A DNA stretch of 63,973 nt, the filler included, from Anaeromyces robustus (Eukaryota), in assembly GCA_002104895.1 (NCBI GenBank). It is 5 parts of 5 records of this genome, joined end to end, with 100 filler letters (N's around TTAATTAATTAA, not from the genome) between each part and the next. Parts side by side here need not be neighbours in the genome. Positions count along the whole stretch, not along the records: positions 13,839 to 27,547 come from MCFG01000708.1; 4 more parts are not named here. The stretch is one strand, 5' to 3'. Of this stretch, positions 17,893 through 24,500 are shown one piece after another. Under the pieces are notes generated by a model. The model worked only from the letters and a program-made list of their open reading frames with translations. It did not search any database and was not told the DNA's origin. Positions within the stretch are counted from its first letter, which is position 1. Every line of letters begins with the position of its first letter. Both the position numbers and the translations under genes were made by a program.

Positions 17893-18138
17893 ATGCGTAT
17901 TTGGGGTTCTGTTATTGCTTTAGTTGCATTATTACAAGCTTGTAGTGCTGTTATTATTTCTGCAGGTGGAGAAGGTGAAGCATGCTGTTACTATGGTGGT
18001 GAAACTATATACAAAGCTTGGTGTGATAATGGTGCTAGCTTTAAGACAGTTCCAAATAATTTCAAAGGTAATAGCTGTGTTAAATTCAAGTGTACTAATA
18101 AAGCACTTCCATGTACTTGTAAAATTAGATGTTCATAA
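17893..18138 (+). CDS. Small secreted cysteine-rich protein (81 aa; ~62-aa mature peptide with 8 Cys), copy A
   Basis: Intronless ORF, clearly GC-richer than its flanks. CACAATG start context. Signal peptide MRIWGSVIALVALLQACSA. Even number of Cys in the mature region. Confidence 0.88.
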   Translation: MRIWGSVIALVALLQACSAVIISAGGEGEACCYYGGETIYKAWCDNGASFKTVPNNFKGNSCVKFKCTNKALPCTCKIRCS

Positions 18139-19900
18139 GTTATTACTCTAATATTACAAAAGAATAATATATATGTAATGTATATAATGCAATATGTTTT
18201 ACATATAATAATGATATGATACTTTGTGTATCATTAAATGAAAATGGTATTATATAATTAAACTATTACTATATAATATTATTTTATAAAATTATATATT
18301 ATTAATGTATATATATACTATTTGAGTATTTATATAAAACGATATGATATATAATATATTAAAACATATATATTCATAAATATTCATATTTTATAATATA
18401 TATATATATATATATTAAATCTATCTTAAATACTATACAAAATATTTTGTAGAATAATATTAAAAAATATATTATGGTACAATTATTTTACATTACTTAA
18501 AATATATAAAAATATATATAATTATATCATCAGTAAATATTAAAAATAAATAAAAAAAAAACTTCTATCAAATATAAAAAAAAATAAAAGAAATAATAAA
18601 AAAACCAAATATTAATTAAAAAATTAAATTTATATTTAATATAATAAATATTTGAAAAAAGAAATTTTTATATATTATTGTTAGTGTTGAGTGTTGTTGT
18701 TTATGGTGTTTGTTTGCTTGTTTTTTTTTCGAAACATATTAGTATAAAACTCTAAAATAAGAAATGATATATTAATGTAAAAACGTAAGAATTTTTCAGT
18801 TGAAGTATATGACGGAAAAATATTTTATAATAAAAACAATAAACCAGAATCAATGCTTAATACTTATAGATATATTTCTTATATCAATTTAATATATTAA
18901 TTTATTCATTTATTTAAATTTTATTTATTCATTTATTTAAATTTTATTTATTCATTTATTTAAATTTTATTTTTTCATTTAATTAAATTTTTTATTATTT
19001 AATAATAAAGTTAAAGTTTTTGTCATTTAAATTTTAAAATTTTACTGTCATACTAAAAAATACTTTCAATATAAAAAATTAAAAATAAGGAATTTACTAT
19101 ATATTAATAATTTAATCATTATTATATTACAATATATTGTAATATATTTAAATTATTATGAAATAATTTTTAAAATTAAAATGTTTATTGATAGATTTTA
19201 CAAATATATTAAAATTATAATAATTTATCTTATTTAATAATAATTTTATATAAATTAAAATAAAAAAAAAAAAATTATTAATTCTTAAAATAAAAAAAAA
19301 TTTAAAATACAAGGATAAAAAAGATATATTGTATTACATTCTTAATATATAGTTTCAACAAAATATTTAATAATAAAATTATTTTAATACTAATTTTCAT
19401 TAAAATATTATTATAACTATAATATTGTTATAATCCATATATATATTCTATATAAAAATCTAATTTATTTTTTTAATTATTTTTGTTAATAAAATAAAAT
19501 TTATATCTATTTCATATTTTTTTTCTCCTTTCCTTTCTATAATATTAATAAAAATAAAACTACATATATATTATGTTATTTTATTAAATATTATTTTTAG
19601 GTTATAATATTGATAAAATTTTCTTATTCAATACATCTTTATTACTTACGTTAAATATTTTTTAAAAATAAAATTATATACAATCCTTTATGTATATATA
19701 TTATATTATATATATATATAATACATATATAATTATATAAAATCTATTCATTATTTATTTTTTTTATTTATTCTTTTTTATTTTTCATTTATTTATTTAT
19801 TTTAGAATTGTTTAATTAAATAATATTCATATTTAGCAACAAGTACTGGGGCTTTCCATAAAGATTTACAAACACTTCTAAGATATTTATCCCTAAAATT

Positions 19901-20245
19901 CATTTCTTCTTTTTTATGTAACCTAAAATTATAAACTTATTATAAAGTTTTAAATCATACATTAAGAAATTTAATAATAGATTTATTACAAAAAGAAGAT
20001 TTAAACTACTCCATAGAATTTCTATAGATCTGTAGAAAGTCTAATAACTAATACTTTAAATCTTTTTAATTTTTCAATTAATTCATTTAATCCTTTTAAT
20101 TCATTTAATCGTTTTAATTCATTTAATTAATTAAATTTTATAATAATTTTTATAACATTTTTATAATTCTCTAACCATCTATGTAATGTCAATTAATATC
20201 TAATTTGTTAACTTATCCAATAACAACTTGAAAATACCCAATAAT
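19901..20245. repeat. Dispersed ~350-bp repeat, copy 1
   Basis: Colinear with 57428-57782 on another contig; shared core ATAGAATTTCTATAGATCTGTAGAAAGTCTAATAA. Confidence 0.9.
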
Positions 20246-20319: not shown

Positions 20320-21514
20320 GTTATGAAGTTTATGGTAATTCTAAAGAAAATTCATTGAAAAAAAGATATGGTAAAAGATTAGAAAAATATTTTTATAATA
20401 ATATGTTACCTAATAAAAAATTATTTTCAATTATAATTCTATTTTAGAAATATCTGATAATATATCATTGTTTGATAAAATAACTAATGATAATGATAAA
20501 AAATATAAATTTAGTTATATTATATCTGAATATTCTAAAAGTATAAAAGAATTAAAATTGAGGAAATGGTTTTAGATGTTAATAGTTTATATTTAAAATG
20601 TAGTAATAAACAAAAAAATATTATTAGAACATTTAAATCAGTGATTGTTATAAATTAGAAGTTAGATATGATAATTATTTATATGAACAAGTATTAATTG
20701 TTATTTATGCAAAAACTAAACTTGTAGAATGGCCATATGATAGTGATAGATATCTAAATTATATTGAAGAAGAAAGAACTTATGATTCTAATAATTGCAT
20801 TATTACTGATAAAATTTTAACAACTTTAGGATAAATTATATTCTAAATCTGATCGTAGTAGTTTTGTTTGTATGTCTAATGCAAATGGTTTAGAATTAAA
20901 AAATGTTCATTTGATACTATACTAATAAAGAATTATCTTTAACTACTGATAACATTTTAATTAATGGTATTGTATTCCATTTATTAAAAATATTAAAAAT
21001 ATGAGAATATATTACAATAGTGAAAATGATAAAATTATTAATAAAGTAAATAACGAAAAAATTATATGGGAATTATATGGTAATAAAAAATATAATTAAA
21101 TCATTTCTAATAATAATGATACTATGAATGGTATAGTAATTAACAATATAACATTACATTTGGTTCCTTTAGGTTTATAAATTAATAATTATATTGATAC
21201 GAAGAAATATATTTATGAAGAAGATGTCGAAATGAAAAAAAAATTTATTATGAAACTATTTATTCATTAAAGTTAACAGATAAAGGTTCTTTAATTTTTA
21301 ATGATAAAATTACTATATATAAAGATAAAGATATTAATAATTTATATCCTCCTTATAGATTAGATATTATTAATGATAATTTATATATAAGAAATTCTAT
21401 AAATAAATATTTATGGTCTACTAGCGAAAAATATCCAAGTGGTAATTCTATGATAAGGAATACTATTGAAAATTGTGAAAAATTATATGAAAATGAAATA
21501 TTTAACAATAACTA
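20320..21514 (+). pseudogene. Decayed lectin-like gene, 5' part (bulb-type lectin-like motifs); partial copy at ~15350-15948
   Basis: Interrupted frames give YSLKLTDKGSLI.NDKITIY and YRLDIINDNLYIRNSINKYLWSTS, resembling bulb-type lectin repeats. Several stops and frameshifts. Confidence 0.5.
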
Positions 21515-24500
21515 GTTATTCATTAATATGTTCATATATTCATTAATGAACTATTATTTATATTTAATTGTCTTTTTTTTGGAATCCAATATTTTATAAT
21601 TTACGCATTCTTATTGATAATGTATAAAAATTCATTATTTTTCATTAAGAAGCTCGATTTTAAAACAAAATTAAAAAAATAAATATAGATTTAATTAATT
21701 TTTTATTTAATTATTTATTGATTTTATTATTAATATGAATAAAAAAATATTAGTAAATAACAATATTTAATTATGAACCAATTATCATCAGAGAAATTAT
21801 GACATAACTTGAATAAAAAAATGTTAAATAATACATTGACTAAAAAAAGTATATTTTTAATGTTTTTTTTTAGTCAATATATTAATATTTTATTTATTCA
21901 ATTTCAGTAATAATCAAACAAAAATAAAAAATAATAAGATAATAGTATAAATTTTTTTATTATTTTGAAATAACTTAATATTATTTTATAAATATTAATA
22001 TTGGTTTTAATATTATTATTAGTATTATACTTTATAGAAGCAGAAAATATTCTTTTTTATTCCTTAATTAGAAATATAGAAAATATTAATACTTTAAAAA
22101 TTTTTTTACTTTTTTTCCATAAATTTATTTTATTTTTGTTTTATTTTCATAATATACTTTGTAACAATTTAATTTGTATTATTATGTATATATATACAAA
22201 TTAAAGTATTAATTTTATTTTTACCTTTATAAGTATATTAAAAAAATTAATTAATCATAATAGTTTAAATAGAAAATATAAAATTATGAACATATTTAAA
22301 CTTTGTACCTATAATGTTGTTAAATGCTGTTAAATGTTTAAGATATTGTTAAATATTTAATATTAATGTTTAATATTGATTATAATTGAAGATACTTATT
22401 TCTACTTATTACTGAGTAATAATCCATTTCTATATATCATATAATCATTCAATTTATATTCAATTTATATTAGTTCTTTAATAGTAAAATTTTATACAAT
22501 AACTAGTAATTAATTATTGAACAACTTTGGATATAATTAAAATGTTTAATTATATATTATGCTTTTTTAAAAAATCATAATATATATATTGTTAATTGTC
22601 TCATCATCTAATAATTCCGCATATAACCATAAATAGTTTATTAATATAATATATATATATATATATAATAATACATTTATAGAATGATATAATATTTTAT
22701 TAATATTTATAGTATAATAAAATATTTTATTAATATTTATAGAATGATATAATATTTTATTAATATTTATAGAATGATATAATATTTTATTAATATTTAT
22801 AAAATGGTCTAATATTTTATTAATATTTATAGAATATTCTGATAAATATTTATAGAATATTCTAATAAAAGTCAACCAAATTAAATAATAAGTAAATATG
22901 GAAATAATTTATAAAAGAATTTAATTTATTTTAATTAGTCATTTATTTATTATTTATTAATATTACAATTATAGTTAAATAATAAATTTATTTATTACTA
23001 TGAATATTACAATTTTAGCTGAGTAATAAAACAACAATAATTAAATTATTGTAAATTTATGTTCAATAACTAGTCATTAATTATTTAACAAAATTTCTAA
23101 TTAATTTTTCCATTAAAGAAAAATTTTAATTAATATATTATTAAGATATAATTTTTATTCTATTTTAATAATAAAATATAAAAAAAATGAGATATTTCAA
23201 AATTATAAGATAATGATAAAATTTTTACTATTAACTTAATATACTCTGTATTTTTAATTAAAGAATAAAAAAGAATATTCTATGAATTTTTAATTAAAGA
23301 ATAAAAAGAATATTCTCTGTATTTTATTTAAAGAATAAAAAGAATATTTTCTTCATCTATTAAAGAGTATAAGAAGAATATTTTCTTCAACTATGAAAAA
23401 GTATAAAAAGAAAGAAATTTAATTAAATAAAAAATTAAATATCAAATAAATAATTAAATATCAAATAAAAAATTAAATATCAAATAAAAAATTAAATAAA
23501 AATCATTACAGTAAAATTTATTAATATAATCAATCCATATTTGTTTAATTCACAATGCGTATTTGGGGTTCTGTTATTGCTTTAGTTGCATTATTACAAG
23601 CTTGTAGTGCTGTTATTATTTCTGCAGGTGGAGAAGGTGAAGCATGCTGTTACTATGGTGGTGAAACTATATACAAAGCTTGGTGTGATAATGGTGCTAG
23701 CTTTAAGACAGTTCCAAATAATTTCAAAGGTAATAGCTGTGTTAAATTCAAGTGTACTAATAAAGCACTTCCATGTACTTGTAAAATTAGATGTTCATAA
23801 GTTATTACTCTAATATTACAAAAGAGTAATATATATGTAATGTATATAATGCAATATATTTTACATATAATAATGATATGATACTTTGTGTATCATTAAA
23901 TGAAAATGGTATTATATAATTAAACTATTACTATATAATATTATTTTATAAAATTATATATTATTAATGTATATATATACTATTTGAGTATTTATATAAA
24001 ACGATATGATATATAATATATTAAAACATATATATTCATAAATATTCATATTTTATAATATATATATATTAAATCTATCTTAAATACTATATAAAATATT
24101 TTGTAGAATAATATAAAAAATATATTATGGTACAATTATTTTACATTACTTAAAATATATAAAAATATATATAATTATATCATCAGTAAATATTAAAAAT
24201 AAATAAAAAAAACTTTTATCATATATAAAAAAAATAAAAGAAATAATAAAAAAACCAAATATTAATTAAAAAATTAAATTTATATTTAATATAATAAATA
24301 TTTGAAAAAAGAAATTTTTATATATTATTGTTAGTGTTGAGTGTTGTTGTTTATGGTGTTTGTTTGCTTGTTTTTTTTTTCGAAACATATTAGTATAAAA
24401 CTCTAGAATAAGAAATGATATATTAATGTAAAAACGTAAGAATTTTTCAGTTGAAGTATACAACGGAAAAATATTTTATAATAAAAACAATAAATCAGAA

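Follow-up and report, generated by a model that had tools for sequence, protein, structure and literature searches.

Two identical copies of a mini-protein gene

A secreted-type, cysteine-rich mini-protein is encoded twice in a 63,973-nucleotide stretch of the Anaeromyces robustus genome (assembly GCA_002104895.1), which consists of five parts from five records joined end to end and is referred to here as the window. Both genes lie in the part contributed by MCFG01000708.1 (13839–27547; 13,709 bp), copy A at 17893–18138 and copy B at 23555–23800, on the plus strand, each as a single exon of 81 codons and a stop. An earlier note on this DNA had proposed two such copies, each with a signal peptide and a mature part of about 62 residues, and indeed both intervals translate to the same 81-residue protein (P0001); the identity of the two coding sequences (CDSs), judged by eye in that note, holds at every letter over 246 bp. 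The only true relative found, P0004, aligns with copy A from end to end.

Residues 1–19 (17893–17949 in copy A) form a predicted signal peptide with a hydropathy peak of 3.5 at residues 7–14; P0004 is identical at 13 of these 19 positions, and small residues occupy –3 and –1 of the predicted cleavage site in both proteins, pointing to cleavage after Ala19. The mature part, residues 20–81 (17950–18135), carries cysteines at 31, 32, 44, 62, 67, 74, 76 and 80, in exactly the CC-x11-C-x17-C-x4-C-x6-CxC-x3-C spacing that had been claimed, and a ninth cysteine, C17, lies within the signal peptide. Eight conserved cysteines together with the compact structural model suggest four disulfides. The mature peptide has a mass of about 6.65 kDa, an isoelectric point (pI) of 8.7 and a net charge of about +4, distributed as –3 in its first half and +7 in the second, and with the hydrophobic N-terminus this is consistent with the cationic secreted peptide that the earlier note had described.

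The CDS has a GC content of 35%, and most 100-bp bins of its flanks, 7–14%. Copies A and B are the sole ATG-initiated open reading frames (ORFs) of 75 residues or more on the 13.7-kb contig, and 300 local shuffles yield 0.14 ORFs of at least 75 residues per shuffle and none with eight cysteines; hence the mini-protein ORF is not a product of chance. Judged by its sequence, it is a genuine, lineage-restricted, secreted-type, cysteine-rich cationic orphan of a Neocallimastigomycota genome.

Self-comparison of the contig demonstrates a recent segmental duplication of approximately 3.5 kb in direct orientation, with the copies 2 kb apart. Copy A of the segment (15350–18890, plus strand) begins within a decayed gene, here termed gene X, and copy B (20931–24543, plus strand) runs on from the 5′ part of gene X; the segment comprises the 3′ part of this gene, the peptide gene and 750 bp downstream. 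Thus the duplicated gene of the earlier note stands as two copies, the duplicated unit being the larger segment and not the gene alone. Between the segment copies there are 50 substitutions and 17 indels over 3,459 aligned columns (1.4% difference outside the CDS), and the outer flanks of copies A and B are unrelated to each other; this divergence and the unrelated flanks argue against a collapsed-assembly artefact. The claim that the flanks differ applies farther out, where the substitutions and indels are found, and fails nearest the gene, as 393 bp upstream and 25 bp downstream are identical. Together with the CDS these make up a 664-bp tract (17500–18163, partner 23162–23825, plus strand), and the upstream part contains, in both copies, short tandem arrays with 34-bp and 19-bp units (17576–17840 in copy A) within the probable promoter.

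The probability of an unchanged CDS is 0.055 with clustered differences merged and 0.008 counting all events, and that of a difference-free gap as long as the 664-bp tract, 0.009 and 0.00005, respectively. Such identity would result from either gene conversion or selection acting on the promoter and the gene. Dosage amplification is possible: an extra copy may increase output, or may just as well have been carried along by local rearrangement. We keep this reading at the level of possibility because the gene is part of a 3.5-kb unit in which a decayed gene is duplicated as well, and given the two estimates for the unchanged CDS. Neither a coding remnant nor a terminal signature of a Helitron or a terminal-inverted-repeat transposon is seen at the duplication junctions. 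The 81-residue protein is on public record from one 4,353-bp contig, and a 4,353-bp contig is also the source of P0002, a gene X model with at least one residue unlike the window version; this suggests that a third copy, or a variant left uncollapsed, exists elsewhere.

Relatives, predicted fold and expression

A HMMER search over 1.84 billion protein representatives produced four matches, of which P0004 is the only true relative (78 residues, 58% identity, E 1e-18, present only in ENA). It keeps all eight cysteines, has one loop two residues shorter, and is also basic (pI 8.9, charge +5). The remaining matches were rejected: P0005 and P0006, long translations of tandem repeats, owe their score to the sum of 19 weak stretches (20–23 bits) that lack the cysteine scaffold, and P0007, a repeat protein of bacterial type, matches the Gly/Glu stretch. 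The word-indexed protein search returned nothing from the single sequence and P0004 alone from the alignment. The 90%-identity cluster of P0001 is represented by P0002, which lacks the peptide and was joined via a fused gene model, with the consequence that the cluster of the peptide itself escapes word-indexed searches. Among longer proteins there was one match in 331 candidates, a fused public model considered below.

In agreement with the earlier note, which recognized no family, searches of Pfam, NCBIfam, PHROGs and PDB sequences assign none. Pfam gives no families for P0001 at E up to 10, and for P0004 only ENOD40 at E 0.15; PHROGs, NCBIfam and phage records have no match to the peptide; PDB sequences have none either, four hits of one search at E 0.4–1.5, three of them to a fucose-binding lectin, being treated as chance. 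In DNA collections, a relative was present in none of 108 pattern matches in JGI metagenomes, none of 34 in viral contigs and none of 50 in prokaryote genomes. A metagenome scan by cysteine spacing only yielded at least 118 loci, 60 of them in frame among the matches listed, all with at least 14 cysteines and none on the profile (best E 0.7), and is uninformative, as it was swamped by low-complexity sequence. The best ESM Atlas scores, 0.80 for giant-virus hypothetical clusters and 0.76 for PF11402, are at chance level, and the mature part has no usable match there.

Literature searches turned up no paper on this protein. Model numbers 298561 and 298562 and their neighbours are absent from ten supplements of PMC8406330 and from 13 of the 19 supplements of PMC8106346, which says little, as the identifier of the 81-residue record is not shown. 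Recent horizontal transfer is not supported, with GC content at third codon positions of 15% for the mini-protein against 7–11% for six other window ORFs, and with no relative among prokaryotes or phages. The searched collections probably include the annotated proteomes of other gut fungi; tiny genes are often left uncalled, and therefore the true range of the family may be wider.

The mature sequence alone (single-sequence mode) was modeled with AlphaFold2 in five models. The best one, with a predicted local distance difference test score (pLDDT) of 85.1 and a predicted template modeling score of 0.66, is all-beta without helix, with strands predicted at 2–3, 8–13, 20–25, 29–34, 42–48 and 55–61 in mature numbering. 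The fold class is likely a compact six-strand minimal jelly-roll, or beta-sandwich. Identity between P0001 and P0004 amounts to 22 of 34 positions in predicted strands versus 11 of 28 in loops, giving modest support to the model.

At E 0.001 Foldseek gave no match in PDB or BFVD. VIA-align comparison with 48,161 chains found two at Z of at least 5 and none at Z 8: a designed double-stranded beta-helix (Z 5.8, root-mean-square deviation (rmsd) 2.8, 59 residues aligned) and the C-terminal module of PCSK9 (Z 5.1, rmsd 2.3, 59 aligned). These are followed by the weak matches SIX1 (Z 4.6, rmsd 2.4, 57 aligned) and SIX6 (Z 4.3, rmsd 2.8, 60 aligned), and, at background level, resistin (Z 3.6, rmsd 2.2, 48 aligned). 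A minimal jelly-roll is what these neighbours have in common. By VIA-align's own calibration, such Z scores may reflect merely a common arrangement, and with neighbours this weak in the modeled fold, family membership is not claimed from structure. The best 50 rows of the structure comparisons contain no AFP/PAF, MAX, ToxA-like or crystallin-type killer-toxin entries, which does not amount to an exclusion of these folds.

The mini-protein gene is probably transcribed. Region 17800–18300 was checked by 50 sampled words in 24 listed sequencing runs, by word content; four raw-read runs among the 24 were not indexed. At least half of the words occur in 15 of the 24 runs (11 studies): four of these are recorded as RNA (shares 0.60–0.66, two studies), ten are guessed to be RNA (0.58–0.92), and one is of unknown kind (0.96). 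The partial shares fit a transcript over the CDS but not the whole flank.

Candidate function and competing explanations

We tentatively favour, as a possibility somewhat short of probable, a secreted antimicrobial confined to one lineage that would bind to anionic surfaces of microbes; the grounds are the peptide's charge and size, the analogy in fold, and ecology. The mini-protein would be secreted, with disulfides formed in the endoplasmic reticulum to give a protease-resistant 6.6-kDa protein; the conserved K41, W43, K51, K66, R79 and Y33 would be the contacts by which the protein docks to anionic polymers or lipids on the surface of rival microbes in the gut; and the docked protein might then inhibit or permeabilize competitors near the rhizoid on plant fibre. 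Such action would be akin to that of the resistin/RELM-beta head or of fungal microbiome-manipulating effectors, without membership in either family. A narrow distribution, a recent duplication and decay of the neighbouring genes are in keeping with conflict genes; and a predicted protease-resistant, basic, secreted protein of one lineage, recently copied next to decaying lectin-type genes, is the ground on which we liken it to conflict proteins. The cysteine content, the basic character of P0004 on the same scaffold, the all-beta model with its better-conserved strands, the weak likeness to secreted disulfide-rich jelly-rolls and the occurrence of the region in sequencing runs were also counted in favour of the antimicrobial reading, and in co-culture A. 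robustus shows an antagonistic response to Fibrobacter (PMC8406330, in excerpts).

Several observations weigh against this interpretation. Only one of the five structural models exceeds pLDDT 80 (85, 70, 57, 49 and 40); every structural Z score is below 8, the best match is a de novo design, and GOLD and cupin domains (4.4) tie with the effectors. The net charge of +4 is modest, and one half of the peptide is acidic. Conflict proteins often form diversified families, and here the copies are identical, with no divergent paralogue seen in the window. Five sequencing runs have next to no words of the region, four of them under the same species label, which could reflect absence from the strain, a silent gene or gaps in the index. 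Finally, neither P0001 nor P0004 matches the gamma-core, taken as a pattern in three orientations, or the RELM signature C-X11-C-X8-C-X-C-X3-C-X10-C-X-C-X-C-X9-CC, which is invariant according to excerpts of PMC9869618.

The jelly-roll beta-sandwich is the usual scaffold of lectins and carbohydrate-binding modules (CBMs), and the conserved W43 and Y33, an aromatic residue at position 50 and the adjoining decayed ricin-B lectin gene (gene Y, below) would all suit a non-catalytic glycan- or surface-binding mini-protein, either lectin/CBM-like or a wall coat, that serves fibre adhesion, fibre loosening or shielding of the fungus's own chitin wall with no killing. Such a role has a real if limited chance, as there is no CBM or lectin family match, gut-fungal CBMs are usually modular and the domain is fused to no enzyme among longer proteins (the single match in 331 candidates being a probable mis-splice), and a core aid to fibre degradation would be expected across gut fungi, yet a single relative was found. 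Being small, disulfide-locked and species-restricted, the protein could alternatively be a secreted ligand for a fungal receptor, acting as a zoospore, developmental or self/non-self cue; we consider this unlikely, since it has neither a dibasic processing site nor a repeated short peptide of the fungal-pheromone kind, and no receptor gene is found on this contig. Small disulfide-rich beta proteins are often enzyme inhibitors, and chagasin-type cysteine-protease-inhibitor scaffolds occur among the weak structural matches (5swk, Z 4.1; the amoebiasin-type 6cjz, Z 3.3); yet these scores are at background level and no inhibitor family is matched, making inhibition of extracellular enzymes, whether bacterial, protozoan or host proteases or glycosidases, distinctly unlikely.

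One more explanation concerns the gene itself, as public annotation places both copies within spliced fusions mapping onto 13839–27547. ORX57081.1 (217 residues; “CBM10 domain-containing” in UniRef) consists of the first 75 residues of copy A followed by fragments of a repeat and gene X, and ORX57083.1 (278 residues; “Ricin B lectin”), of the first 75 residues of copy B and gene Y; a GT donor-like site indeed follows codon 75. If these models were right, the mini-protein would be the N-terminal module of the 217- and 278-residue proteins; or else copy B could be an assembly artefact, as the contig is short. We regard both variants as very unlikely. P0004 retains C76, I78, R79 and C80, all past the donor, and stops at the same last cysteine; the downstream “exons” are stop- and frameshift-ridden gene pieces, one overlapping an interspersed repeat; and the models splice one donor to two unrelated targets. 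The end of P0004 and the broken state of these “exons” make both fusions probable mis-annotations. Moreover, the 81-residue form is itself on record in NCBI/UniRef, and an artefactual copy B conflicts with the divergence and different outer flanks of the segments. The CBM_10 domain implied by the public name is absent from Pfam matches, the ORX57081.1 fusion (P0003) having no Pfam families at E up to 1, and P0001 likewise none.

The antimicrobial reading bears on how gut fungi persist though vastly outnumbered by bacteria. Earlier candidates from gut fungi are products of nonribosomal peptide synthetases or of polyketide synthases, as well as bacteriocin-like matches, the bacteriocins coming from species other than A. 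robustus (excerpts of PMC8406330 and PMC8106346). The mini-protein offers a definite candidate of 62 residues, open to synthesis and assay. If active, it would add a new scaffold for antimicrobials, of interest for the ecology of the rumen and perhaps for influencing communities of methanogens or fibre degraders; even if inactive, it exemplifies genes hidden in public annotation, both copies being inside larger, misleadingly named models. Orphan small secreted proteins are common in fungi. A bolder version, in which the mini-protein is the founding member of a new ribosomally made class of fungal antimicrobials, a four-disulfide mini jelly-roll convergent on resistin/RELM-beta and amplified for patch defence against bacteria, methanogens and rival fungi, appears rather unlikely; mammals use resistin/RELM-beta to keep gut bacteria away.

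Surrounding genes in the contig are decayed. Gene X (20292–21515, plus strand), interrupted by stops and shifts of frame and matching no Pfam family at E < 0.05, feeds the later “exons” of ORX57081.1, whose second “exon” is overlapped by a non-coding interspersed repeat of about 350 bp (19895–20246), 91% identical to 57421–57782 on another contig and possibly a small non-autonomous element. Copy B is followed downstream by gene Y (24751–25559, plus strand), which also has stops and frame changes, contains the ricin-B lectin domain (PF00652, E 1.7e-6 at 25042–25182, just under the cut-off) and feeds the later “exons” of ORX57083.1. A perfect 34-bp direct repeat (26987–27020 and 27088–27121) surrounds a short GC-richer stretch.

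Elsewhere in the window, two separate ORFs at 60397–62234 encode AAA-ATPase_like (PF09820, E 3e-20) and PD-(D/E)XK nuclease (PF08011, E 3e-7) domains, which we take to be a bacterial-type family expanded in gut fungi, here presumably split or intron-interrupted. A GNAT acetyltransferase exon (PF13302, E 5e-6) lies at 51942–52322, and two long low-complexity ORFs at 45875–50681, the second with a PX domain (E 9e-13), are probably exons of one gene. Exons on the minus strand at 9082–12026 contain pectin-lyase-like, Asn-rich beta-helix repeats by eye (in Pfam, only DUF5123 at E 0.001), presumably of the kind typical of gut-fungal receptor ectodomains. Four N-linkers (13739–13838, 27548–27647, 41315–41414 and 55062–55161), each with a central TTAATTAATTAA, separate the parts, and neighbours across linkers are not genomic neighbours.

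Comparison with known systems

The earlier note set the cysteine spacing apart from those of hydrophobins, CBM18/hevein, fungal dockerins (CBM10) and CS-alpha-beta defensins, and pattern and/or Pfam tests bear this out, as all are unmatched. The CxxxC-helix/CxC-strand pattern of CS-alpha-beta defensins is not matched and the model has no helix; for hydrophobins the C-CC-C-C-CC-C pattern, and for CBM18/hevein the cysteine pattern, are also unmatched, with no Pfam hit to either.

One analogy in architecture is with the resistin/RELM-beta head (PDB 1RGX) and PCSK9 modules (4K8R, 7ANQ), as all appear to be secreted, disulfide-rich six-strand jelly-rolls of about 60 residues with a basic surface, a likeness that for the mini-protein comes from the model. 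Excerpts of PMC8253364 describe a jelly-roll of six strands, positively charged at its surface, for the resistin head; according to them, RELM proteins use the head to bind bacterial lipids and to form pores or permeabilize bacterial membranes. The C-x11-C and CxC-x3-C spacings occur in both RELM and the mini-protein; however, the CC pair is C-terminal in RELM and N-terminal here, the ten-cysteine signature is missing, and RELM has an N-terminal helical coiled-coil tail, whereas the 62-residue mature chain has no helix in the model. With no sequence similarity to RELM or PCSK9, this is an analogy at most.

The FOLD effectors of Fusarium (Avr3/SIX1, 7T69; SIX6, 8EBB) are likewise fungal, secreted and cysteine-containing, and one of their domains aligns weakly, but they are dual-domain proteins of plant pathogens, unlike the single 62-residue domain with its own cysteine pattern considered here. 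Excerpts of PMC10462633 on orphan effector folds make no mention of resistin, PCSK9 or jelly-roll, and those of bioRxiv 2022.10.13.512120 include no gut fungi. PAF/AFP proteins (PF11402) share with the mini-protein the fungal origin, secretion, small size, cationic character, cysteine richness and, as predicted here, an all-beta structure; they differ in cysteine spacing, and the mini-protein has neither a Pfam match, nor the gamma-core pattern, nor an evident pro-peptide. Set beside the five-strand beta-barrel of PAF/AFP, the model is all-beta, with no chain match above Z 5.8.

The bacteriocin-like peptides reported from gut fungi (Swift et al., 2021, PMC8106346) are similarly proposed ribosomal antimicrobials of Neocallimastigomycota; in excerpts of that study they are antiSMASH matches in N. 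californiae and C. churrovis that resemble bacterial bacteriocins, while for the mini-protein the searches made returned neither a bacterial nor a phage relative. That fungi secrete bactericidal effectors is established, as excerpts of a preprint on VdAve1 state (10.64898/2026.05.26.727833). With such antimicrobial effectors, and with fungal small secreted cysteine-rich proteins in general, the mini-protein shares its short length, signal peptide, cysteine richness, lineage restriction and dynamic genome region, differing in a new cysteine scaffold and in its origin from a gut symbiont of an early-diverging phylum. At 81 residues (below about 200), with eight mature cysteines, a hydrophobic N-terminus and no Pfam family, it would fall into the class of fungal small secreted cysteine-rich proteins, in which its scaffold appears to be new and like nothing described.

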